A stretch of DNA of 64,000 bases. Source: a virus. Its lineage: Duplodnaviria > Heunggongvirae > Uroviricota > Caudoviricetes. Below, piece after piece: positions 6,128 through 63,288 of the stretch. Within the stretch, counting starts at the first letter, position 1. Each line of letters begins with the position of its first letter. Both the position numbers and the translations under genes were made by a program. The notes under the pieces are model-generated. The model searched no databases, was not told the origin of the DNA, and was given only the letters and a program-made list of their open reading frames with translations. Location: positions 108,702-172,701 of IMG/VR virus record IMGVR_UViG_2974569193_000001. The stretch is one strand, 5' to 3'.

Positions 6128-6495
6128 CCCTGCTCTATGACGGCGCCCTGGAAGGCAACTGCGTCGGCCGCTTCGTGCGCGCCGGCCAGACCTTCGACGT
6201 CATTCGCCCCGGCTACGACGCCCAGGGCGTCAAGCGCCAGACCTGGACCCAGATCATCCATGAGGGTGTGCCGGTCTTCGAGGTCAAGGTCCGCACCGAC
6301 CTCGACAACGTGATCGACCGCTTCGACACGCTCTGGGAGCGCCACATCGGCGATGACGCCGACTTCCTGGCCCGCGCCCTGGCCTCGGTCAAGCGCGAGC
6401 GGACCTCCAAGTTCCGCGACGGCAAGTCCGGCGTCGCCCCGGCCCCGACCCTGGTCCACGACGATCATCCCTACCCGCCGCACTATGTCGCATAA
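6124..6495 (+). CDS. hypothetical protein
   Basis: 123 aa. TTG start overlaps the upstream TGA as TTGA, implying translational coupling. Confidence 0.5.
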   Translation: MTLLYDGALEGNCVGRFVRAGQTFDVIRPGYDAQGVKRQTWTQIIHEGVPVFEVKVRTDLDNVIDRFDTLWERHIGDDADFLARALASVKRERTSKFRDGKSGVAPAPTLVHDDHPYPPHYVA

Positions 6496-6509
6496 TGTTG
6501 GCGCGAGAC

Positions 6510-6569
6510 TGTTGACACCTCTGATTTTGTGACATAGAAGCCTCCTCGACGACAACGAAGGAGGCTTTC
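6510..6569 (+). promoter_or_regulatory. canonical cassette promoter and leader for the recombinase gene
   Basis: CTGTTGACAC (6512-6517), 17 bp, TAGAAG (6535-6540), CCTCCT-CGACGACAAC-GA-AGGAGG, then CTTTC-ATG. Confidence 0.6.
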
Positions 6570-7882: not shown

Positions 7883-8238
7883 TGGCGTCCGAAATAGAAG
7901 AGCGCCTGGACCCGAAACTGCTGGCTCCGCTGATCTACCGCTACTTCTACAATGGCCCCGTCGGCGGTGCGGCCCAACGGCTGGCGCGGATCATCCGCAA
8001 CCATGCCATGGGCTTGCCGATCATGACCTTCGACGAGGTGTTCGCCGAGTATCTCGCCGACCGCTTTGGCCTCGACGAGGACGCCATCGCCGCCGAGCGC
8101 GCCGTCTTCTGGAAGGCGATGAACGGCATGGGCGAGCCGGACCCGATCGACCGCTTTTACCGCTACGCCCAGGCCAAGGAACTCCTCGACTGCGTCAAGG
8201 TGACCCTCGAAAAACGTCGTCCGCAACAACTGTCATGA
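7882..8238 (+). CDS. hypothetical protein
   Basis: 118 aa; ATG overlaps the upstream TGA as ATGA. Confidence 0.55.
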   Translation: MASEIEERLDPKLLAPLIYRYFYNGPVGGAAQRLARIIRNHAMGLPIMTFDEVFAEYLADRFGLDEDAIAAERAVFWKAMNGMGEPDPIDRFYRYAQAKELLDCVKVTLEKRRPQQLS

Positions 8239-8239
8239 A

Positions 8240-8305
8240 TCTTGACACCTGTCGGGAAAGGAGGCTAGATGACCCCCGCCTTTCACCCCCGTCCCGACAG
8301 GCTTC
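8240..8305 (+). promoter_or_regulatory. promoter region for the replicase gene, with a 10-bp inverted repeat and an SD-led mini-ORF
   Basis: TTGACA at about 8242, 17 bp, CTAGAT. Perfect inverted repeat CCTGTCGGGA (8248-8257) / TCCCGACAGG (8292-8301). AAAGGAGG-CTAG-ATG (8269) opens a 17-codon ORF overlapping the replicase ATG at 8306. Confidence 0.45.
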
Positions 8306-11300
8306 ATGTCCGACCCCTTTGATTTCCTCGCCGCGCTGTTCGCGGCGCATGAAGGCCCGATCGCCTTCGAACACGACAACAAGACCGTCAAGACCCGCGA
8401 GCCTGAGTTCGTCGAGGATCATGCCGGCGCTCTGTATGTCTCGCCGTCCACGCCGGACGGCCGCGTCGCCTTCGTGTTCGGCTCTGACCAGGATGTCGAC
8501 CGCGACGCCTGGGAGTCGTTCCGTCTCAAGCCGACCGTGGTCCTCTACAAGGAGAAGACCGGCGACATGATCGTCGCCTGGGCCTTCGACGAGACCCAGG
8601 AACCCGACGATGTCCGCCGGCTGGCCGATGCCCTGGGCATGGCTGACCTGGAGGAGCCGATCCCGCTGCCGGGGACCAACGGCTGGGCCTTGGTCCACGC
8701 CGAGGAGAGCGACTACTACACGCTCGACGAGGTCGAACGCGTGTACGCGCCGGCCAAGAAGGTCGGCTACGACGATCCGCCCAAGAATCGGCAAAAAGAT
8801 CGGCAATTTTCTGACGCGCCTGCCGAGCAAGCCTCGGAAAAGTCTAAGAAAAAGGCTGCTTCTGACACCGGCAAGAAAACCGGCGCGGACGACCCGCCCT
8901 GGGACGAGGACCTGGGGACCTATGCCGACGCTCAGGTCAAGACGCCCTATGACGAGCGCGACCCGGCCCTGAGCCGTGAGATCATCGTCTCGGTCGGCGG
9001 CAACAGCAAGTCGATGAACTGGCAACCCAAGGCCATGCCGCTGGGCGCGTTCGTCGCCCAGTTCTGCCAGCACCGCGAGGGCGCCAAGGATGGCGTCTCC
9101 TTCGTCATGGGCGACATGGTCCCCGGCCAGCGCAAGAAGACGGCGGTCAAGGCCCTCTACGCGGTGGGCCTGGACGTCGACGTCGGCATGTCCTCGGCGG
9201 CGATCGACGCGGCGTTGAAGAAGTTCGGGCGCATGGCCGTGCGCTACACCACCCACTCGCACCTGAAGTCGGTCACGGACGTCAAGAAGGACGTCTTGAT
9301 CAAGTGGTGCGAGCAGGAAGCCGACGGCGCTGACTACGAGGAGGACGAGGTCCTCCAGCGCTACTTCCTGGCCAAGGACCTGATGACGCCGGAGATCGCC
9401 AAGACGGTCGAGTTCAACGGCACCGAGCACAAGGACGGCGGCATCATGGTGAGCGTCAAGCACGCTCCCATCGCCAAGCACCGGATCATCGTGCCGCTCG
9501 CCGAGGCGTTCGACATCTCCAAGGTCGCCCCGACCCAGAAGGAGGCGATGGAAAAGTGGGCCAAGGTTCCGACCGCGCTGGCGGCGGAACTGGGCGTGCC
9601 GCTCGACAAGTCGTGCCTGGACCCCTCGCGCCTCTTCTATCTGCCGCGTCACGCCAAGGGCAAGCCGTTCGAGGTCAGCCTGTTTGGTGGCGACCTCTTC
9701 GACTGGAAGAGCCTGACGCTCGACGACCCGTTCGAGGCCGAGATCGCCAAGCTCTCCAAGGGCACCAGCAAGTCCAAGACCGCCGCTGGCCGCGACCTCG
9801 GCCGCTGGTCGATGAAGGCCGCCCACGGCTTCCAGGTCGTGCAGGTGATGGAGGAGCACTGCCCCGACAAGCTGCGCCATCAAGTCTCGACCGGCTACGA
9901 GATCGAGTGCCCGTTTGACGACCTGCACTCCAATGCCGGCGACACCGAAGACCGCGCCTGTCTGGCGGTCAACGCCGGCGATGGCCCCAGCGAGTGGTTC
10001 ACCGTCCGCTGCCAACACGAGTCCTGCCGCGAGTTCACCAACCTCGACATGCTGGGCAAGATGGTCGAGGACGGCTGGTTCGACCGCGCCTGCCTGGACG
10101 ACGAGGACTACAACATCGTCGAGGCCGAGAACGCGCCCAACCCGGTCGCGGCCAAGCGCATCGAGACCGAGGACAAGGCCAAGGAAGCCTACATGCAGGC
10201 GATCTTCGACCTGCCTCAGATCGACTTCACCGACGACGACGTCGACAAGGTGGTGCGCATCTGTTGCGAGGCCGCCCTGGGGACCCTGGCCGAGAACAAG
10301 GCCAAGGACGCCCTCAAGGCGCGCCTGGGCGTCAACGGCACGGTCATCAACAAGATGTTCAAGGACATGAAGGCGAGCCTCGCCCGTGAACAGAACGTCG
10401 AGGGCACGGTCAAGGACCCCCTGGGCCGCAGCATCTTCTCCTATGCCGGCGAGTTCAACTTCGACGAGGCGTTCTCCTGCTGCTTCCGGGCGCTGCTGAA
10501 CACCAACCGCGAGAAGGACCAGCCGATCTTCTCCTGCTTGCAGGACAAGCCGGTCCGGATGGCGACGGATGTCGATGGGCGCCTGAAGTTCACCGAGATC
10601 GGGGCCTCGGCCGCGATGAACGCCGAACTGAACGAGCTTGTCACCTTCGTGCGCAAGAACGATCAGGGCACGGGCGCTCGCGGCCGGGTGCCCGACGACG
10701 TCGCCCGCCACGTCTACGAGAAGTGCTATACCCGCCTGCCTCGGACGCCCGAGATCATGTACACCCCGATCTACACGGCCGACGGTGACCTGATCCGCAA
10801 GCCGGGCTGGTATCAGAACCTGGACATCATGATGGCCGACATCGGCTTCCAGGTGCCCAAGGTCTATAGCGACCCGACGCCCGAGGAGGTCCAAGAGGCC
10901 GTGCGCCTGCTGACCGACGACGTGCTGATCGACTTCCCGTTCCTGGACTACGACACCCAGGGCAACGAGCGTCGTGAGCCGTCGCTGGCCAACGCCCTGG
11001 CGATGCTGATCACCCCGTTCATGCGCCGCATGATCGATAGCTGCACGCCGGTGTTCTTCGTCTCCAAGCCCACGCCCGGCACGGGTGGGACATTCCTGGG
11101 CATGGTGCCGATCATCCTCTTCGACGGGGAAGAGCCGGCCCCGATCCGCTATACTCAGAACGAAGAAGAGATGCAGAAAGCTCTTCTGGCTTCGCTGATG
11201 AATTCGAAGGCCTACTTGTTCTTCGATGACGTCAAGGAGTTTAACAATCGGGTGCTCCTGATGGCGATTACTTCCCGCTATATTGGCGGGCGGGTGCTGG

Positions 11301-11962: not shown

Positions 11963-11985
11963 CGGGGGTGAGTGCTCCAGGACTA

Positions 11986-12021
11986 CGAAAAAGGCCCCAG
12001 GAGCGATCCTGGGGCCTTTTG
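11986..12021. terminator. bidirectional rho-independent terminator
   Basis: AAAAA-GGCCCCAGG-agcgat-CCTGGGGCC-TTTT between the convergent genes 8306..11962 and 12032..12421. Perfect 9-bp GC stem flanked by A and T runs. Confidence 0.7.
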
Positions 12022-12031
12022 AGTAGGCGGC

Positions 12032-24183: not shown

Positions 24184-24635
24184 CTCCTAAAGGCCGGGCG
24201 GATGCGCCGGGCCGGCTTGTTCTCGGTCAATTCCCGCCCGCTGAAGGGCGGGAAGGAAAGCTCGCTGATGCCGTTCTGCCGGATGGCGAACTGGCGCTTC
24301 TTGGTGTCGATCCCGTCGAGGTGCGTGCTGCGCCGCCGCTCGATGAGTTCGAGGTCGACGACGTCACCAAACACCTTGCCGTGGAAAATCTGCCGCCGCG
24401 CCCAGGTGATGGCCGAACCCAGGTGCTCGAAGGTCCTGGTCTTCTCGGCCTCCAGGAGGCTGGCGCCGTCATGGAAGGACGGGTCCACCCACGACAGCTT
24501 GATTTCCCGCGCCGGGAGAGACTTGACCAGGACGTTGATGGGCTCGTAGCCGAAACGCTGGGCAAAGTCGCCCACGTCGTAGCTCTCGATGTCCAGCACC
24601 ACCATGGTGATCGGCTTGGTCGTTACGGACGACAC
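24180..24635 (-). CDS. hypothetical protein
   Basis: 151 aa; GTG start directly after an AAGCGTTGACAAAGCC promoter, possibly leaderless. Confidence 0.5.
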   Translation of the reverse strand: MSSVTTKPITMVVLDIESYDVGDFAQRFGYEPINVLVKSLPAREIKLSWVDPSFHDGASLLEAEKTRTFEHLGSAITWARRQIFHGKVFGDVVDLELIERRRSTHLDGIDTKKRQFAIRQNGISELSFPPFSGRELTENKPARRIRPAFRR

Positions 24636-24665
24636 TATCGATTTCCCTCCGGCTTTGTCAACGCT
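24636..24665 (-). promoter_or_regulatory. second-class promoter AAGCGTTGACAAAGCC, possibly leaderless
   Basis: An identical 16-mer AAGCGTTGACAAAGCC, 17 bp, then ATAGTG, where the GTG is the start codon of gene 24180..24635. Confidence 0.45.
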
Positions 24666-26026: not shown

Positions 26027-26611
26027 CTACTGGGGTTGGGCCGGCGCCGGGATGGCGAAGGCAAGGGATTGTTCGACCAGGGCCAAGAGGTCGGTTACCA
26101 GCTTGGGATTGAGGTCGTCCTCGGTCAGGGCGGCGGCGACGGCGTTGATCCGCGACCACGTGAAGTCCTCGGTCAGGCCAAGGTTGTGGAGGCGCAGCAG
26201 GGTCTCGCCGTGGATCGCCACGACGCCGGAAAGGTCACGCAGGTTGCGCAAGGTCAGCAGCCGCTCGGAAAGCATCTTGATCGCGCTGCCCGAGGGCGCC
26301 AGGAGCAGGCGCATCCAGTCGCCGCCGGGGTCGTCGCCCCGGCGCAGGTCCGGATGGTCCAGGGTCGCGCCCCAGATCACCGCGTGGGCTTTGGCGGCCA
26401 GCGACTGCCGGCGCTTGGCGATGGCCTCGGCTTCCTTGGCTTCGCGCTGGGCGGTCAGGAAGGTGGCGATGATCGCCGAGGGAAAGATCGCCACGAGGAA
26501 GAAGGCGAGGCGGTCGGTCCAGACCGCGTGCGGCGTGATCACGTTCATGGCCGTGCCGATCAGCACCGTGGGATAGATCAGGCCGCCGTGGCGGTGGATG
26601 AACTTGATCAT
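26027..26611 (-). CDS. membrane protein
   Basis: 194 aa with two N-terminal transmembrane segments. Preceded by a cassette promoter; a GGCCTCCG/CGGAGGCC hairpin in the leader contains the SD. Confidence 0.55.
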   Translation of the reverse strand: MIKFIHRHGGLIYPTVLIGTAMNVITPHAVWTDRLAFFLVAIFPSAIIATFLTAQREAKEAEAIAKRRQSLAAKAHAVIWGATLDHPDLRRGDDPGGDWMRLLLAPSGSAIKMLSERLLTLRNLRDLSGVVAIHGETLLRLHNLGLTEDFTWSRINAVAAALTEDDLNPKLVTDLLALVEQSLAFAIPAPAQPQ

Positions 26612-26674
26612 GAAAAGGGCCTCCGGCGTTGTCGTCGGAGGCCCTTCTAGCGAGTCGGTGTCAGGCTGTCAACA
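26612..26674 (-). promoter_or_regulatory. cassette promoter with a hairpin leader
   Basis: GTGTTGACAG, 17 bp, TAGAAG, then GGCCTCCG-ACGACAACG-CCGGAGGCC (an 8-bp stem that sequesters the SD), then CTTTTC-ATG. Confidence 0.55.
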
Positions 26675-26678
26675 CATG

Positions 26679-27293
26679 TCAGCCAGCCGCAGCCACCAAC
26701 TTCTCGATGCGGTTGAAGCCCAGTTCGAGCCGGCCCCAGAAGGCGCTCGGCACGTGCGGCTTGACGACCTCGGTGAAGCGCGCGCGCTCCTTGAGGTACA
26801 TCTTGGCCATGCCCAGGTGAGGCGCCTGGGTCGCCGGGTCCTTGATCGACGCCTCGACGTTGGCGATCCGGTCGGCCAGCTTCAGGATGCAGGCCTCGGG
26901 GTTCTCGCCGAGCTTGCGATAGATGTCCTCGTTGCGGGACTTGCGGTTGGGACCGATGCCCGAGACCGCCCAGACCAGCGCCGCGACGCGGTCGCCGAAC
27001 TTGTCCTCGATCATCTGACGGCGGGCCTCGGGCGTCATGTCGAGGTGGGTGTCCTCGATCACGTCGTGCAGCTTGGCCGCCGCCGTCCAGGTGAAGCCGG
27101 CATAGCCGAAATCGTCCAGGATGCGCTCGACCTTCTGGAGGTGGTAGAGGTAGGGCTGGCCGGCGTACTGCTGATCGCCGTGCGCGGCGATGGCGAACTT
27201 CGTCGGGTCCTCCTGGTGGAAGCCGCCGGGCGCGCCGACGTCCGCCATCAGGTTGGCCAGTTGGTCGGGATCGGACAGGGGCGTGTCGGTCAT
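26679..27293 (-). CDS. HD-domain small alarmone hydrolase ((p)ppGpp hydrolase, SpoT/Mesh1-like)
   Basis: 204 aa. AAHGDQQYAGQPYLYHLQKV ... LHDVIEDT matches the RelA/SpoT hydrolase HD motif (H..GQ.R..G.PY..H ... LHD..EDT). Confidence 0.75.
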   Translation of the reverse strand: MTDTPLSDPDQLANLMADVGAPGGFHQEDPTKFAIAAHGDQQYAGQPYLYHLQKVERILDDFGYAGFTWTAAAKLHDVIEDTHLDMTPEARRQMIEDKFGDRVAALVWAVSGIGPNRKSRNEDIYRKLGENPEACILKLADRIANVEASIKDPATQAPHLGMAKMYLKERARFTEVVKPHVPSAFWGRLELGFNRIEKLVAAAG

Positions 27294-31485: not shown

Positions 31486-31522
31486 AAACGCCGGCGAGAG
31501 GGTCCCGCCGGCGTTTCCTTAG
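31486..31522 (-). terminator. rho-independent terminator (minus strand)
   Basis: Minus strand ACGCCGGCG-ggaccctct-CGCCGGCGT followed by TTTTTCGTTTC; lies after the SPFH gene. Confidence 0.6.
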
Positions 31523-35204: not shown

Positions 35205-35265
35205 GGCGGGTCTCCATCAGCAGGTGATGGAGCCCTTCTAGGCCTCTCGACCTAGCGTGTCAACA
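35205..35265 (-). promoter_or_regulatory. cassette-type promoter
   Basis: GTGTTGACAC, 17 bp, TAGAAG, then a leader ending GGAGACCCGCC-GTG. Confidence 0.5.
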
Positions 35266-35288: not shown

Positions 35289-35612
35289 CTAATAGGTTTC
35301 GAGTTTCGGAGCCTCTTCCAGGACCAGGGTGTACATGTCGCGGGGATCACCGCACGGGATGATGTCCACGATCACGCAGGTCCGGATGCGCTCGCTTTGG
35401 GTCAGGTAGATGACGAAGTCACCCAGGCGCGGTCCTTGGCAGTGGACCATCACGCTGATGCGCTCGATCTTCAGCGGCTTCCTGAACCAGCCGCGCTTGA
35501 CCAAGCGCGGCTGCTCGATCTTGAACGTGCTGGAGTGCATGGCGTGACCCCAGCCTTGCTTGCCGGGGCGGAAGTCGAAGGTCCGAGGACCGTTGTTAAG
35601 ACGCAGGAGCAT
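35289..35612 (-). CDS. hypothetical protein
   Basis: 107 aa. Confidence 0.5.
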   Translation of the reverse strand: MLLRLNNGPRTFDFRPGKQGWGHAMHSSTFKIEQPRLVKRGWFRKPLKIERISVMVHCQGPRLGDFVIYLTQSERIRTCVIVDIIPCGDPRDMYTLVLEEAPKLETY

Positions 35613-42024: not shown

Positions 42025-42084
42025 GGTGGGCCTCCTTCGTTGTCGTCGGAGCCTACCTAGACTGGCGCGAGTGTGTTGTCAAGC
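42025..42084 (-). promoter_or_regulatory. cassette promoter and leader
   Basis: GCTTGACAAC, 17 bp, TAGGTA, then GGCTC-CGACGACAAC-GA-AGGAGG, then CCCACC-GTG. Confidence 0.55.
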
Positions 42085-45957: not shown

Positions 45958-46526
45958 GCCTTGATCTCCTCGAAGCGGCCGTCCATGAACTCGGCCTCGC
46001 GCCGGCCCCAGACCTGTCCGCTGCCGTCGATATAGGTCAGCAGGATTTCGTCATCCTGGATCGGGGTCTCGCATTGGATGCGGACGATCCCCACCAGGGC
46101 ATAGTCGGTCCCGCGCTTCTTGTGCCGGAACCGCCGCATGCCGCGCGGAAGTTCGGCCAGGAACGCTTTCATGGCGTCGGCTATCTTGGTGAAGCCGTGC
46201 GGGAAGTGCGAGCCGGGGTTGCGCATCCAGGCATAGACCGTGGCCAGGGCGAACCGCCCGGCCGCGATCTCGCCGGTGGGGTCCTTGCGCAGGACGTCCG
46301 GGGCGTGCTCTTCCAGATAGTTGGTGCCGACGAGCGCCAGCATCCGGGCCTCGTCGACGCTCGTCGGCAGGTTGATGTGTCCCACCGGGGTCGACGTTTC
46401 CAGGCGCTTGATCATGTCGTCGATCAGCTTGGCGCTGTCCTGGTGAAAGCGCTTGAGGTCGCCGCCATAAATGGAGGCGCTGCTGAGATGCCAGTCCCGG
46501 AGAAGGATGAGAGGGTCTTGAGTCAT
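45954..46526 (-). CDS. hypothetical protein
   Basis: Start at MTQDPLILLRDW, set by the promoter and leader (ATG 8 nt after AAAGG). Confidence 0.55.
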   Translation of the reverse strand: MTQDPLILLRDWHLSSASIYGGDLKRFHQDSAKLIDDMIKRLETSTPVGHINLPTSVDEARMLALVGTNYLEEHAPDVLRKDPTGEIAAGRFALATVYAWMRNPGSHFPHGFTKIADAMKAFLAELPRGMRRFRHKKRGTDYALVGIVRIQCETPIQDDEILLTYIDGSGQVWGRREAEFMDGRFEEIKA

Positions 46527-46584
46527 TGGAGCCTTTCGTGTCGTCACCCGCGACACTAGCTGGTCGCGGGTGAAGCTGTCAACA
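46527..46584 (-). promoter_or_regulatory. cassette promoter with a 10-bp inverted repeat straddling the -10
   Basis: GTGTTGACAG, then CTT-CACCCGCGAC-CAG-CTAGTG-TC-GTCGCGGGTG-ACGACACGAAAGG, then CTCCA-ATG. Confidence 0.55.
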
Positions 46585-56127: not shown

Positions 56128-56316
56128 CTACTCCTGTTTTGCCTTGGCGGGGCGCCGGCGGCTCGTGGGATGGGGGACGAACACCAGGGCGACGGTCGAG
56201 CCGCCGGTGTAAAAGGTCCGGCGGCTATAGAGCCAACCGCCCTCGACTTCCAGGCGATCGGTGACTTGCCCGTCCGCTTCGTCGACTTTTTCCCATTTCG
56301 TCTTCTTGGCCATGTG
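56128..56316 (-). CDS. hypothetical small protein
   Basis: Start at MAKKTKWEKV with SD GAGGGG. Confidence 0.4.
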   Translation of the reverse strand, partial: HMAKKTKWEKVDEADGQVTDRLEVEGGWLYSRRTFYTGGSTVALVFVPHPTSRRRPAKAKQE

Positions 56317-56449
56317 CCCCTCGAAATTCGCCGGCACCCTAGAGACGCGCCGATGTGTTGACAAGCGCAAAATAGCTCTGGCTGGCGAGTGTTGACAAGG
56401 AGGCGGTGGTCCCTTAGAAGGGCGGCGACGACAACGAAAGGAGGCGCCG
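56317..56449. promoter_or_regulatory. divergent control region with tandem GTGTTGACAAG boxes
   Basis: Plus strand: GTGTTGACAAG at 56356-56366 and again at 56390-56400; the second is followed after 17 bp by TAGAAG and GG-CGGCGACGACAAC-GA-AAGGAGG, then CGCCG-ATG (56450). The same boxes read TTGTCAACAC on the minus strand upstream of the 56316 gene and gcrA. Confidence 0.55.
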
Positions 56450-58349: not shown

Positions 58350-58410
58350 TGTTGACAGCCTCGCCGCGCCCGGTTAAAAGCCTCCTCGACGACAACGCAA
58401 GGAGCCTGTC
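58350..58410 (+). promoter_or_regulatory. canonical cassette promoter and leader
   Basis: GTGTTGACAG (58350-58359), 16-17 bp, TTAAAAG, then CCTCCT-CGACGACAAC-GC-AAGGAGC, then CTGTC-TTG. Confidence 0.6.
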
Positions 58411-60936: not shown

Positions 60937-61427
60937 CCCGCAGCACCGCCGAAATCATCGCCCGCATCGAGGCCCTGGAGAACGACCTCTCGGACTTCTT
61001 CGGCTTCCAGAAGGGCGATCTGATCTGCTACCTGCCGTTCGACGACGCCAAGCGCTGGCTCAACGACAAGGCCTCGGCCGACGCCTGGGAGCCGAACGTC
61101 AACACGCCCGAGGCGATCAAGTCGTCGATCTACGACTACATGTCGTTCGCCTGGGACAAGGCCAACAACTGCCGGGGGCTGTCGGCCGGTCGCTCCATCG
61201 ACCACATGAAGGCGTGGCTCTGGCTGCTGGGCGAAGACGAGGCGTGGGTCGAGGCCCTGCGGCTCGACAACTACAACATGTACGGCAAGCCCCAGCTTCG
61301 TGCGATCTGCGAGCGCTTCGGTTGGGACTGGACCAAATGGGATGACGGGTCCTGGACCAACAGCGAAGGCGAGGCCGGATACGGCCCTGATCAAGTCCCG
61401 CGCGTCGGCGTCGTCGAGCCGGCCTAA
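60933..61427 (+). CDS. hypothetical protein
   Basis: 164 aa; ATGA overlap with the upstream gene. Confidence 0.5.
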   Translation: MTRSTAEIIARIEALENDLSDFFGFQKGDLICYLPFDDAKRWLNDKASADAWEPNVNTPEAIKSSIYDYMSFAWDKANNCRGLSAGRSIDHMKAWLWLLGEDEAWVEALRLDNYNMYGKPQLRAICERFGWDWTKWDDGSWTNSEGEAGYGPDQVPRVGVVEPA

Positions 61428-61447
61428 ACACTCCGCTGGCGTTAGAG

Positions 61448-61506
61448 TGTTGACAGTCGTCGGGGCCTCCTCTATAGACACGCTCGACGACAACGAGGAG
61501 GCCCCG
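61448..61506 (+). promoter_or_regulatory. canonical cassette promoter with an 11-bp inverted repeat around the -10 and +1
   Basis: GTGTTGACAG, then TCGTC-GGGGCCTCCTC-TATAGA-CACGCT-CGACGACAAC-GAGGAGGCCCC-G-ATG. GGGGCCTCCTC (61461-61471) and GAGGAGGCCCC (61495-61505) are perfect reverse complements. Confidence 0.6.
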
Positions 61507-63288
61507 ATGACCACCGAGACCATGACCCTGAGCTTCCGGATCGAAGGCGCTGCGCTCGTTGAGCGCGCCCGCGATCGCGTCATCGAAGGCAACTGGGAGC
61601 ACGGCCTGCGCATCCTCGTCGAGGGTCTGCACGGCATGACCTATGACTACGCCATCGACATCCTCAGGGGCAAATACACGCTGGGCGGCTGGTCCTCGGA
61701 CCCCGAGGGCGTCTATCTCGCCGACCAGGACCCCGAGGACGAGACCTTCAGGCGCTACAAGGAGACCTTCGACTACCAGTTCGGCGCCGTCCTGAAGATG
61801 GACGATGGTCGCATCATGCGGCCCTACGCGGTGGTCGACAGCTACTCCAAACTCGATTTCGATTCGCGCGTGCGCCACCTGCGCCTAGCCCCCGGCTCGG
61901 ACCCGGTCCACGTCCGTCCCAAGCGGTTCCGTGACGTGCGCGCCGAACTCGATGGCGAGCAGATCGACTGGGCCTATCGCTCGCTCCACTACGCCGACAA
62001 CCCGACCCAGGACATCGCCAAGCTGGTGACGCTGGACGGATATCACCCGACCCACCGGATGGTCGTGCTGTTCGAAGAGGTCCGGGACTACCCCAAGCTC
62101 CTGAAGCCGTCGGTCGAGACCGACGCCCAGAAGGTGGTCGATCTGGCCCTAAAGTGCGGGCGCGGGCTCAACAAGCGCGGGCACATCTACGATCACGGCG
62201 AGCCGGGCGTGACGGACGAGTACATGTACGGCACGACCAAGACGGTCGACAACGTCCCCGGCGCCTGGACCCTGCGGAACCCGAACTACATCGCCCCCGC
62301 CACCGCGAGCCTGACCGAGGCTGTCGCCGGCGCCAACAAGGTCTCGGCCGTCAAGGCGATCGAAGCCGTCGGCGGCCCTATGGACGAGGTCGGAGCCATG
62401 AACCGGCTGATCAAGGATCAGGTCGACGAGGGCATGACCATCAGCGCGGCCATCGACATCGCCCGCGCCCGCATGGCTCTCATGGGCGGCATGGCCGAGG
62501 ACCCAGAGCAGCGCCTGCGGGCGATCAACGACGCCTACGCCGCCAAGTATGAGCGGGCCGAGGGCCGCAGCGTCGAGGAGTACCGCAAGGCCATCCTCGC
62601 CCAGGCCGGCGACGACTTCTTCGATCTCGCGTACACGGATGTCGACGGCAAGGACGTCGTCCTGAAGGTCCCGACCGCGCCGTTCGAGCAATGGGCTCTG
62701 TGGCGCACGGCCGGCTCCCACCTCGCCAAGCCTTGGAAGCGGGTGACCTACACCGGCTTCAAGATGTTCGGCGATGATCCCTACCACACCGACTGGGTGC
62801 TGGGCGCGGGGCTCAATCCCGAGGACTGGCCGATCGTGGAGAGCGACAACCCGCCGCTCCACAAGGCCGCCTGGGACAAGCGCTTCCAGCTTGCCGAGGA
62901 AAAGCTGGGCGGCAACATGCGCGTCCTGCTTGGCAAGGGCTTCGTGACCGGCAAGATCGTGATGCTCAAGCCGGGCGAGACCCTATCGCCGGGCGAGATC
63001 GGCGTGATCCGCAACGCCGGCCCCGACTTCGTCCAGGCCGCCCAGAGCGCGATCGAGCACAACACCGCCCTGATCTGCGAGAATGGCGGCAGCGTCGCCC
63101 ACCTCGTGGTCGAGTACCTGGACAAGCCGCTGCGCCTGACCCGGATCGAGAACGCCCGCAAGATTTTCAAGGACGGCATGACCGTCTACCTCGACTTCGA
63201 CAAGTCGACGCGCACGATCGCCAAAGGCGGCCTGGGGCCGAGCCCCGCCGACCTGGGCCTGGACTCCGAATGGGAGATTGAAGAGTGA
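61507..63288 (+). CDS. protein with C-terminal PEP-utilising-enzyme mobile (phosphohistidine) domain
   Basis: 594 aa from the ATG after a cassette promoter. GKGFVTGKIVMLKPGETLSPGEIGVIRNAGPDFVQAAQSAIEHNTALICENGGSVAHLVVEYLDKPL matches the swivelling His domain of pyruvate-phosphate dikinase / PEP synthase / rifampin phosphotransferase (GG..H). The N-terminal 450 aa are unrecognised. Confidence 0.6.
   Translation: MTTETMTLSFRIEGAALVERARDRVIEGNWEHGLRILVEGLHGMTYDYAIDILRGKYTLGGWSSDPEGVYLADQDPEDETFRRYKETFDYQFGAVLKMDDGRIMRPYAVVDSYSKLDFDSRVRHLRLAPGSDPVHVRPKRFRDVRAELDGEQIDWAYRSLHYADNPTQDIAKLVTLDGYHPTHRMVVLFEEVRDYPKLLKPSVETDAQKVVDLALKCGRGLNKRGHIYDHGEPGVTDEYMYGTTKTVDNVPGAWTLRNPNYIAPATASLTEAVAGANKVSAVKAIEAVGGPMDEVGAMNRLIKDQVDEGMTISAAIDIARARMALMGGMAEDPEQRLRAINDAYAAKYERAEGRSVEEYRKAILAQAGDDFFDLAYTDVDGKDVVLKVPTAPFEQWALWRTAGSHLAKPWKRVTYTGFKMFGDDPYHTDWVLGAGLNPEDWPIVESDNPPLHKAAWDKRFQLAEEKLGGNMRVLLGKGFVTGKIVMLKPGETLSPGEIGVIRNAGPDFVQAAQSAIEHNTALICENGGSVAHLVVEYLDKPLRLTRIENARKIFKDGMTVYLDFDKSTRTIAKGGLGPSPADLGLDSEWEIEE

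Follow-up and report, generated by a model that had tools for sequence, protein, structure and literature searches.

The 64-kb stretch of DNA analysed here (the window) is part of Caulobacter phage CcrBL10 (MH588544/NC_048045; record positions 108,702–172,701), a phiCbK-like jumbo siphovirus belonging to the genus Poindextervirus of the Dolichocephalovirinae. Approximately 20 copies of a promoter cassette are present across the window, and a number of these contain inverted repeats, five of which had been listed in an earlier note on this sequence. It is confirmed that the inverted repeats are real and not due to chance. With a confidence somewhat above even, they are considered to be gates in the style of gene e of phage T4, whereby RNA reading through from upstream would be silent and RNA initiated at the promoter would be open for translation. 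The interpretation of the earlier note is partly supported: its preference for gene-specific RNA structures that act on read-through RNA holds in outline, with four of its five hairpins predicted to occlude a Shine–Dalgarno (SD) sequence or start codon in such RNA. We sharpen it to a proposed promoter-in-hairpin gating of the ribosome-binding site (RBS), which is the design of the T4 genes e, soc, 49 and I-TevI and for which sequence, statistics and covariation speak.

In the proposed mechanism, the hairpins would form only on transcripts arriving from the upstream gene. The 5′ arm would be encoded by core promoter DNA (the −35/−10 spacer or the stretch from −10 to +1), usually with the anti-SD word CCTCC, and the 3′ arm would be the SD of the downstream gene, sometimes together with its start codon. 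A polymerase coming from upstream would copy both arms and so close off the RBS in a helix with a free energy between −17 and −35 kcal/mol, and one starting at the embedded promoter would begin 3′ of the left arm and give an open leader, with the gene being translated only from the transcript of its own promoter. The untranslated read-through RNA may perhaps be exposed to Rho or to decay, from which we infer that the element might serve as a translational insulator. The co-directional upstream gene ends 4–26 nt before the −35, with no terminator-like site between them.

phiCbK is the standard Caulobacter phage, and its own promoters and post-transcriptional controls are essentially undescribed. 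The cassette and the hairpins are not mentioned in Gill et al. (2012), the CtrA paper, the TgrL paper (which includes RNA-seq of infection) or the Lacusarx paper, and a promoter-in-hairpin design for phiCbK-like phages has apparently not been described before. If the gating reading is true, it would provide a concrete map of about 20 promoters over this region and would make it predictable which genes are translated only off their own promoter. It would also mean that the T4 trick of placing a promoter inside a hairpin arose independently in an unrelated siphovirus lineage with host sigma-70 promoters, its purpose possibly being dosage insulation and not timing. The matter is also relevant to annotation, as at least one of these hairpins carries a terminator label.

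The promoter cassette and its hairpins

Twenty of the 22 TTGACA sites were aligned as the cassette set, with the intragenic sites 16091 and 56358 set aside. The resulting consensus consists of cTGGCG..AGaGTG, TTGACA, N16–17, CTAGAAG, a few bases, CGACGACAAC, a few bases, AGGAGG, N4–7 and the start codon, with the upstream element cTGGCG..AGaGTG directly abutting the −35 (examples being 61436–61494 and 6498–6556 on the plus strand and 26628–26686 on the minus strand). The −10, which matches the Caulobacter-type GCTANAWC, is spaced 16 nt from TTGACA in 16 of the 20 cassettes. Eleven exact copies of CGACGACAAC were found, each 35–37 nt from the first T of TTGACA, and allowing up to one mismatch gave 34 matches against 7 expected. 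Sigma-70 polymerases start 6–8 nt beyond the −10. Based on this distance and on the fixed position of CGACGACAAC, +1 was placed at the start of GACGACAAC, the predicted start being the G or A that opens it, within CGACGACAAC and 7–8 nt past the −10. Since CGACGACAAC is invariant where transcription is predicted to begin, it may act as a common 5′ leader or be bound by a factor of the phage or its host.

Generic promoter scans of the window missed the cassette promoters because their −10 is without the final T. A sigma-54 reading of the upstream TGGCG element was rejected, as its spacing was judged by eye to be unsuitable. BLAST detected the cassette only in Caulobacter phiCbK-like phages (30 records, with 7–11 visible copies each). 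A search of IMG/VR with the pattern TTGACA-N27–33-GACGACAAC returned matches that were mostly due to chance and no usable further relatives, and a search of the same database with gp179 matched Karma alone. It should also be noted that two tandem −35 units, TGTGTTGACAAG and AGTGTTGACAAG, lie 34 bp apart at 56358–56397 (+) in the divergent region upstream of gp191, an arrangement that is kept in Rogue, phiCbK and Swift. The annotated GTG start of gp257 (24635–24661, −) falls inside a promoter, just 26 nt past a TTGACA, and its true start is probably further downstream.

The longest hairpin lies at the promoter of gp179 on the plus strand. Here the upstream element CTGGCGTTAGAGTG (61436–61449), a consensus feature over the 20 cassettes, stands directly before the −35 TTGACA (61450–61455). 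The left (5′) arm GTCGTCGGGGCCTCCTC (61456–61472) fills the −35/−10 spacer and contains the anti-SD CCTCCTC; the −10 CTATAGA (61472–61478) and the leader motif CGACGACAAC (61485–61494), the latter at the predicted transcription start, are in the loop; and the right (3′) arm GAGGAGGCCCCGATGAC (61495–61511) is made up of the SD, the spacer and the ATG (61507–61509) of gp179. Perfect arms of 13 bp, TCGGGGCCTCCTC at 61460–61472 and GAGGAGGCCCCGA at 61495–61507, extend to 17 nt with 16 of 17 positions paired (94%; 61456–61472 with 61495–61511).

Four further hairpins belong to the five of the earlier note. That of the gp275 promoter (8248–8301, +; −35 at 8242–8247, −10 at 8265–8270), CCTGTCGGGA...TCCCGACAGG, has perfect 10-bp arms (8248–8257/8292–8301), of which the left abuts the −35 and the right stops 4 nt before the ATG at 8306. 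At the gp280 promoter (6539–6566, +; −35 at 6512–6517) the hairpin AGCCTCCT-CGACGACAACGA-AGGAGGCT has arms of 8 bp (6539–6546/6559–6566), in which an anti-SD in the discriminator pairs with the SD. The gp253 promoter (−35 at 26672–26667, −) carries AAGGGCCTCCG-ACGACAACGC-CGGAGGCCCTT at 26615–26646, followed by TTTTCATG; its 11-bp arms are perfect (26615–26625/26636–26646), the left lying between −10 and +1 and the right being the SD. Lastly, TCACCCGCGAC-CAGCTAGT-GTCGCGGGTGA at the minus-strand promoter of gp211 (46544–46573; −35 at 46582–46577) has 11 perfect base pairs (46544–46554/46563–46573) with the −10 within an 8-nt loop. The predicted +1 lies downstream of both arms, and 17 nt separate the end of the helix from the ATG, so that the RBS is left uncovered.

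Another three hairpins were found beyond these five. The gp236 promoter (−35 at 35263–35258, −) has GGGCTCCATCA-CCTGC-TGATGGAGACCC at 35208–35235, which sequesters the SD GGAG (−17.6 kcal/mol, z −3.8 against shuffles). The gp224 promoter (−35 at 42082–42077, −) has AGGCTCC-GACGACAACGAA-GGAGGCC at 42029–42054, which is bulged in CcrBL10 and weak as an isolated CcrBL10 fold (z −1.2), and is a perfect 7 bp in Rogue. A weaker anti-SD/SD pairing, CCTCCT...AGGAG, is present at 58381–58404 (+) in the gp184 promoter (−35 at 58352–58357) and is not kept in the group of phiCbK, Swift and BL57.

The left arm directly follows the −35 and fills the spacer in cassettes 61450, 8242 and 46582 (named here by the first T of the −35), and lies between −10 and +1, with an anti-SD word (CCTCC or CTCC), in cassettes 6512, 26672, 35263, 42082 and 58352, the offsets from the −35 being 6–22 or 27–35. 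In all eight hairpins it is upstream of the predicted +1 and would therefore be absent from promoter-initiated RNA. In seven hairpins the right arm coincides with the SD, to which the ATG is added at 61450; 46582 is the exception.

The five repeats of the earlier note thus exist where it placed them, apart from small corrections. Its arm lengths of 10 bp at 8248 and 8 bp at 6539 hold, those at 61460, 46544 and 26615 are in fact 13, 11 and 11 bp, and the repeat at 6539 runs to 6566, two bases past the end of 6564 that had been given. The description of arms flanking the −10 applies to 61456, 8248 and 46544 and fails for 6539 and 26615, where the left arm is between −10 and +1 and the loop is CGACGACAAC. 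That promoter-initiated mRNA would contain the right arm alone, as the earlier note suggested, agrees with the predicted start sites except at 46544, where neither arm would be included.

Two small open reading frames (ORFs) were noted at the gp275 promoter. The loop of the 8248–8301 hairpin holds AAGGAGG-CTAG-ATG (8258–8322, +), in which ATG 8268 overlaps the −10. The 17-codon ORF from this ATG ends at 8320–8322, beyond the gp275 start at 8306, and its translation would be possible from read-through RNA only. Its SD is lost in BL57, and it may be a coupling upstream ORF or simply due to chance. On the opposite strand, gp276 (8195–8350, −), a 51-amino-acid ORF that covers the gp275 promoter and hairpin, is probably spurious.

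Departure from chance, covariation and predicted RBS occlusion

An origin of the repeats by chance was weighed, as a by-product of G+C-rich sequence and of SD-like and anti-SD-like words near its promoters. Second-order Markov simulations of the window, counting perfect repeats with loops of 3–45 nt, gave 80 ± 8 repeats of at least 8 bp against 85 observed, which is chance level, and two of the five repeats had been given as only 8 bp. The longer classes depart from this: 13 were observed against 6.4 ± 2.3 at 10 bp or more, 8 against 1.7 ± 1.2 at 11 bp or more (a four- to fivefold enrichment, concentrated in about 2% of the sequence) and 2 against 0.18 at 13 bp or more. Promoter cassettes, with only about 2% of the window, hold four of the 13 repeats of at least 10 bp. 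The stem free energies that the earlier note had proposed to compare were far below those of dinucleotide shuffles. As isolated RNA, the five hairpins have −35.2, −25.8 (26615–26646), −21.6 (46544–46573), −17.2 (6539–6566) and −24.6 kcal/mol, with z of −6.5, −6.3, −4.6, −4.6 and −2.8 in the same order. Shuffle and swap controls do not reproduce the hairpins, the arms covary, and the association with promoters has p=3e-5. Enrichment, covariation, shuffles and promoter association have already largely refuted an origin by chance, to which only a minimal probability is given.

A mobile element with terminal inverted repeats was also rejected as a source, since the arms differ in every copy, and Rfam gave zero matches at gathering score anywhere in the window. 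Outside the cassettes discussed, a 26-bp near-perfect palindrome, CAGCCGCGCTTGACCAAGCGCGGCTG, lies at 35488–35513 within the coding region of gp235, and further perfect repeats of 10–12 bp are present at 46325–46369 (intragenic) and 56155–56207.

The effect of the hairpins on translation was modelled as the RBS opening cost, that is, the free energy required for positions −14 to +3 about the start codon to become unpaired. Read-through RNA was modelled with 60 nt upstream of the −35 and promoter-initiated RNA as starting at offset 35. A stable helix over the SD or start codon is predicted on the long RNA for 61456–61511, 26615–26646, 6539–6566, 8248–8301, 35208–35235 and 42029–42054. The predicted cost falls from 21.3 kcal/mol in read-through RNA to 5.5 kcal/mol in promoter-initiated RNA at cassette 61450, from 23.5 to 9.1 at 26672 (ddG +14.4), from 17.9 to 6.1 at 6512 (+11.9; reached by 0/150 shuffles), from 17.8 to 6.7 at 35263 (+11.1; 1/150), from 15.8 to 5.0 at 42082 (+10.8; 2/150), from 12.6 to 6.7 at 8242 (+5.8; 2/150) and from 12.2 to 6.4 at 58352 (+5.8; 6/150). 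In six cassettes the observed value was reached by no more than 2 of 150 shuffles. The remaining cassettes, including 46582, show about no difference between the two forms. The effect was lost on shuffling the 29 nt between −35 and +1, or on replacing this stretch with that of another cassette, and the folds of promoter-initiated leaders were not more stable than those of shuffles (z +1.0 and +1.3). Altogether, 7 of approximately 19 cassettes combine a left arm upstream of the predicted +1 with a right arm over the SD or start codon. Among the 111 annotated gene starts, upstream-dependent occlusion of at least 8 kcal/mol is predicted for 8 of 20 cassette genes and 3 of 91 others (Fisher p=3.4e-5, Mann–Whitney p=0.0012).

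Occlusion of this kind could also reflect translational coupling, in which a ribosome ending the upstream gene would melt the hairpin and free the downstream RBS on a polycistronic RNA. The geometry is suitable at 8242, where just 10 nt lie between the upstream stop (8236–8238) and the left arm. Elsewhere 25–44 nt separate stop and left arm (61427 to 61456, 26679 to 26646, 6495 to 6539 and 42079 to 42054), a distance beyond the reach of a terminating ribosome, so that unmasking is unlikely in general, and coupling leaves the embedded promoter unexplained in every case. It is regarded as very improbable. Separately, strong upstream-dependent RBS occlusion (ddG 8.6–11.8 kcal/mol) is predicted at three gene starts without a cassette, 57232 (+), 7882 (+) and 51205 (−), where translational coupling or some other control may operate.

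For the gating reading, further evidence comes from the relatives of CcrBL10, which include CcrRogue, phiCbK, Swift, Magneto, Karma, Ccr5 and BL57 among others, at 77–87% nucleotide identity. Orthologous cassettes were aligned from these seven phages. The earlier note had named the lack of covariation between arms as grounds for refutation; compensatory substitutions were found that keep the arms paired. The 61450 helix is GGGGCCTCCTC/GAGGAGGCCCC in CcrBL10 and GGGAACTCCTC/GAGGAGTTCCC in Swift and Magneto, where it is perfect with two pairs switched on both sides, the helix 61456–61511 reading GGGGCC/GGCCCC in CcrBL10 and GGGAAC/GTTCCC in Swift. BL57 has an intermediate form with one C·U mismatch, and the loss of 1 nt in phiCbK, Karma and Ccr5 still leaves 10 contiguous pairs, including one G·U. 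In an alignment of the arms only, both partners differ in 4 of the 13 pairs. Pairing is found in 90.8% of cells and drops to at most 55% once the partner is shifted by 1–3 columns; 2 of 500 column shuffles reached the score. A MAFFT alignment of the whole 61450 cassette was dropped, as it placed the right arm out of register.

The 46582 helix behaves similarly, being CAGCCGTGAC/GTCACGGCCG in Rogue and CACCCGCGAC/GTCGCGGGTG elsewhere, with two pairs switched (CG to GC and CG to UA) and 90.9% of cells paired against at most 49% when slid (23 of 500 shuffles reaching the score). That this hairpin covaries without touching an RBS would fit a role of the hairpins as elements of RNA processing or stability, namely RNase III or RNase E sites between cistrons or protective 3′ hairpins. 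All of the hairpins lie exactly between cistrons, and the 17-bp helix at 61456–61511 approaches the length of an RNase III substrate. Most of the stems are only 7–11 bp, however, and stems of this length are too short for RNase III. Processing would also leave unexplained the frequent identity of the right arm with the SD and the association with promoters rather than with intergenic regions in general, and is held to be improbable.

At the putatively gated cassettes, conservation takes other forms as well. Across five lineages no change is seen in the 8248 arms, against eight variable positions in the loop. Cassette 26672 is nearly identical between phages in which the flanking protein is only 58–68% identical, with single changes giving a U·G in Rogue and opening loop-proximal pairs in Swift. 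The stretch 26609–26690 (−), comprising the gp253 promoter, hairpin and leader, is almost 100% identical between CcrBL10 and phiCbK against approximately 79% for the flanking DNA and 58–68% for the gp253 protein, a degree of identity that points to unusually strong purifying selection for an intergenic region. Comparison of orthologous promoters also indicates that the hairpin state is gained and lost: the discriminator of cassette 48091 is unpaired in CcrBL10 (GGATCGTC) and pairs fully in BL57 (GCCTCCTC), and 4–6 of 14–16 cassettes per phage are occluding in the syntenic region.

A third genus also carries the arrangement. Colossus and CcrPW have TTGACG-N17-TACAAG followed directly by GCCTCCTCG-ACGAAA-CGAGGAGGC-ACCC-ATG. 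A variant leader, GACGAAAC, replaces GACGACAAC at 226504–226545 of CcrColossus and 236062–236103 of CcrPW, within a perfect 9-bp anti-SD/SD hairpin, and this Colossusvirus hairpin directly follows the TACAAG −10. The genera thus share the hairpin design but not the leader motif. The Brevundimonas phage Bajun was rejected for comparison, as its gp179 orthologue overlaps the upstream gene and hence no cassette is present there.

Weighing the gating reading

The anatomy of a promoter inside a hairpin would fit equally well if the hairpins were terminators or insulators of the upstream gene that overlap the next promoter, with internally started polymerases being immune as their RNA is without the 5′ arm. 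This was among the options of the earlier note. The hairpin at 26615–26646 is G+C-rich and followed by TTTTC, and its Swift orthologue has been annotated as a predicted rho-independent terminator (TransTermHP); that at 6539–6566 is followed by TTTC. Against this, four of the five hairpins have no usable T-run (61495–61511 is followed by CACC, 8292–8301 by CTTCATG and 46544 by CGACACG), leaving 26615–26646 as the only one with such a run after its stem. The loops are 22, 34, 10, 12 and 8 nt, and those of 22, 34 and 10–12 nt are outside the usual 3–8 nt, the two longest in particular being unlike those of a terminator. A consensus scan for terminators flagged none of the hairpins. Canonical terminators with T-runs do exist in the window, at 11983–12026 and 31486–31516, so the phage appears to use the standard form when it is needed. 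Termination is therefore considered unlikely for the hairpins as a group, and 26615–26646, the only one resembling an intrinsic terminator, may combine termination with occlusion. The two canonical sites are bidirectional terminator-like hairpins with A- and T-runs on both sides, AAAAGGCCCCAGGA...TCCTGGGGCCTTTT and AAACGCCGGCG...CGCCGGCGTTT respectively.

Action at the level of DNA was also weighed, with the repeats as cruciforms or palindromic operators over the −10, affecting promoter opening or serving as the site of a regulator. The 61456, 8248 and 46544 repeats do place the −10 between their arms, and as antisense folds are as stable as sense folds, specificity for the RNA strand is not demonstrated by energy. 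However, the arm sequence is different at every promoter, so a single protein cannot read all of them, which bears out the view of the earlier note that a single operator is unlikely. The compensatory changes keep pairing and not sequence, and there is no shared operator half-site. Some helices are kept through G·U only (CbK at 61450, Rogue at 26672, Swift at 6512 and Rogue at combined-coordinate 70063), and G·U does not pair in DNA, an argument that is weak as the sense and antisense energies are not decisive. Loops of 22–34 nt would make extrusion unfavourable, and the anti-SD/SD identity of the arms would be meaningless in DNA. A DNA-level role is accordingly rated as quite improbable, below termination and processing.

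Several points weigh against the gating reading itself. Where transcription starts, whether read-through RNA is made and how translation responds are all matters that we infer. Antisense folds are about as stable as sense folds, and the choice of strand and of RNA over DNA is a weak one that draws on SD logic and a few G·U pairs; one-sided changes on the sense strand give G·U in five cases, against two A·C and three other mismatches. Covariation amounts to about five double substitutions over five lineages, and the arms-only alignment of 61450 was anchored by hand on the invariant CTCCTC/GAGGAG and is thus biased towards structure. The occlusion comparison is confounded by the non-coding DNA upstream of cassette genes, most other genes having coding DNA there. 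Hairpins were found in none of five cassettes without co-directional read-through (divergent, or after a canonical terminator), a result that is not significant (p ~0.11). A single cassette consensus describes both the upstream (58352) and the embedded (61450) promoter, with no later temporal class; the T4 contrast of early and late is therefore not obviously applicable, and the benefit of a gate is uncertain. Finally, the 46544–46573 hairpin covaries but leaves its RBS free, if anything more open than in shuffles, and so requires a different role, such as pausing, processing, 3′-end protection or an effect at the DNA level.

A broader and more doubtful proposal, offered tentatively, is that phiCbK-like jumbo phages use a modular promoter cassette with GACGACAAC as its fixed 5′ leader, and that about a third of the cassettes double as translational insulators. 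An anti-SD placed in the core promoter would silence read-through RNA, which would be removed by Rho or decay; tandem units would thereby be insulated without terminators, the state could be gained and lost rapidly, and 46544 would represent a second class with a distinct role.

Comparison with known systems

In having an inverted repeat inside a phage promoter, the cassettes recall the early promoters of phage N4. Those contain a conserved stem of 5–7 bp with a 3-nt loop at a fixed position, which is read as DNA by the virion RNA polymerase, whereas in CcrBL10 the arms differ per promoter, the loops are 5–34 nt and the −35 and −10 are ordinary. Intrinsic terminators share with the hairpins the form of G+C-rich intergenic stem-loops, and 26615–26646 has the T-run and the corresponding annotation in CcrSwift. 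Unlike terminators, the CcrBL10 hairpins are mostly without a T-run, have loops of 10–34 nt, have a right arm that is the next SD or start, and contain a promoter.

Gene-specific hairpins that sequester an RBS in read-through RNA are also known from mobE of phage Aeh1 and other homing-endonuclease genes (Gibb and Edgell, cited in PMC3014915). These concern single mobile genes, whereas the genes downstream of the CcrBL10 hairpins are ordinary phage genes, which are mostly of unknown function and include those for a short tyrosine recombinase and a primase-like protein.

The closest likeness is to T4, in which RBS-sequestering hairpins with an embedded late promoter were reportedly described by McPheeters et al. 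in 1986. In the genes e (lysozyme), soc, 49 and I-TevI of T4, the long early RNA buries the SD or AUG in a helix, and a promoter in the DNA encoding the 5′ strand gives transcripts which are without that strand and are translated (PMC3014915). The CcrBL10 hairpins would resemble this in the helix over the SD or AUG on long RNA, in the promoter lying over the DNA of the 5′ strand, and in the conservation of the design among relatives. The two differ in that the embedded promoter of T4 is late and gp55-dependent and the long RNA early or middle, resulting in a temporal gate, whereas in CcrBL10 both the upstream and embedded promoters are cassettes of the host sigma-70 type, with dosage insulation or Rho-mediated polarity as possible purposes of the design. 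In CcrBL10 the design would moreover recur at about a third of the cassettes.

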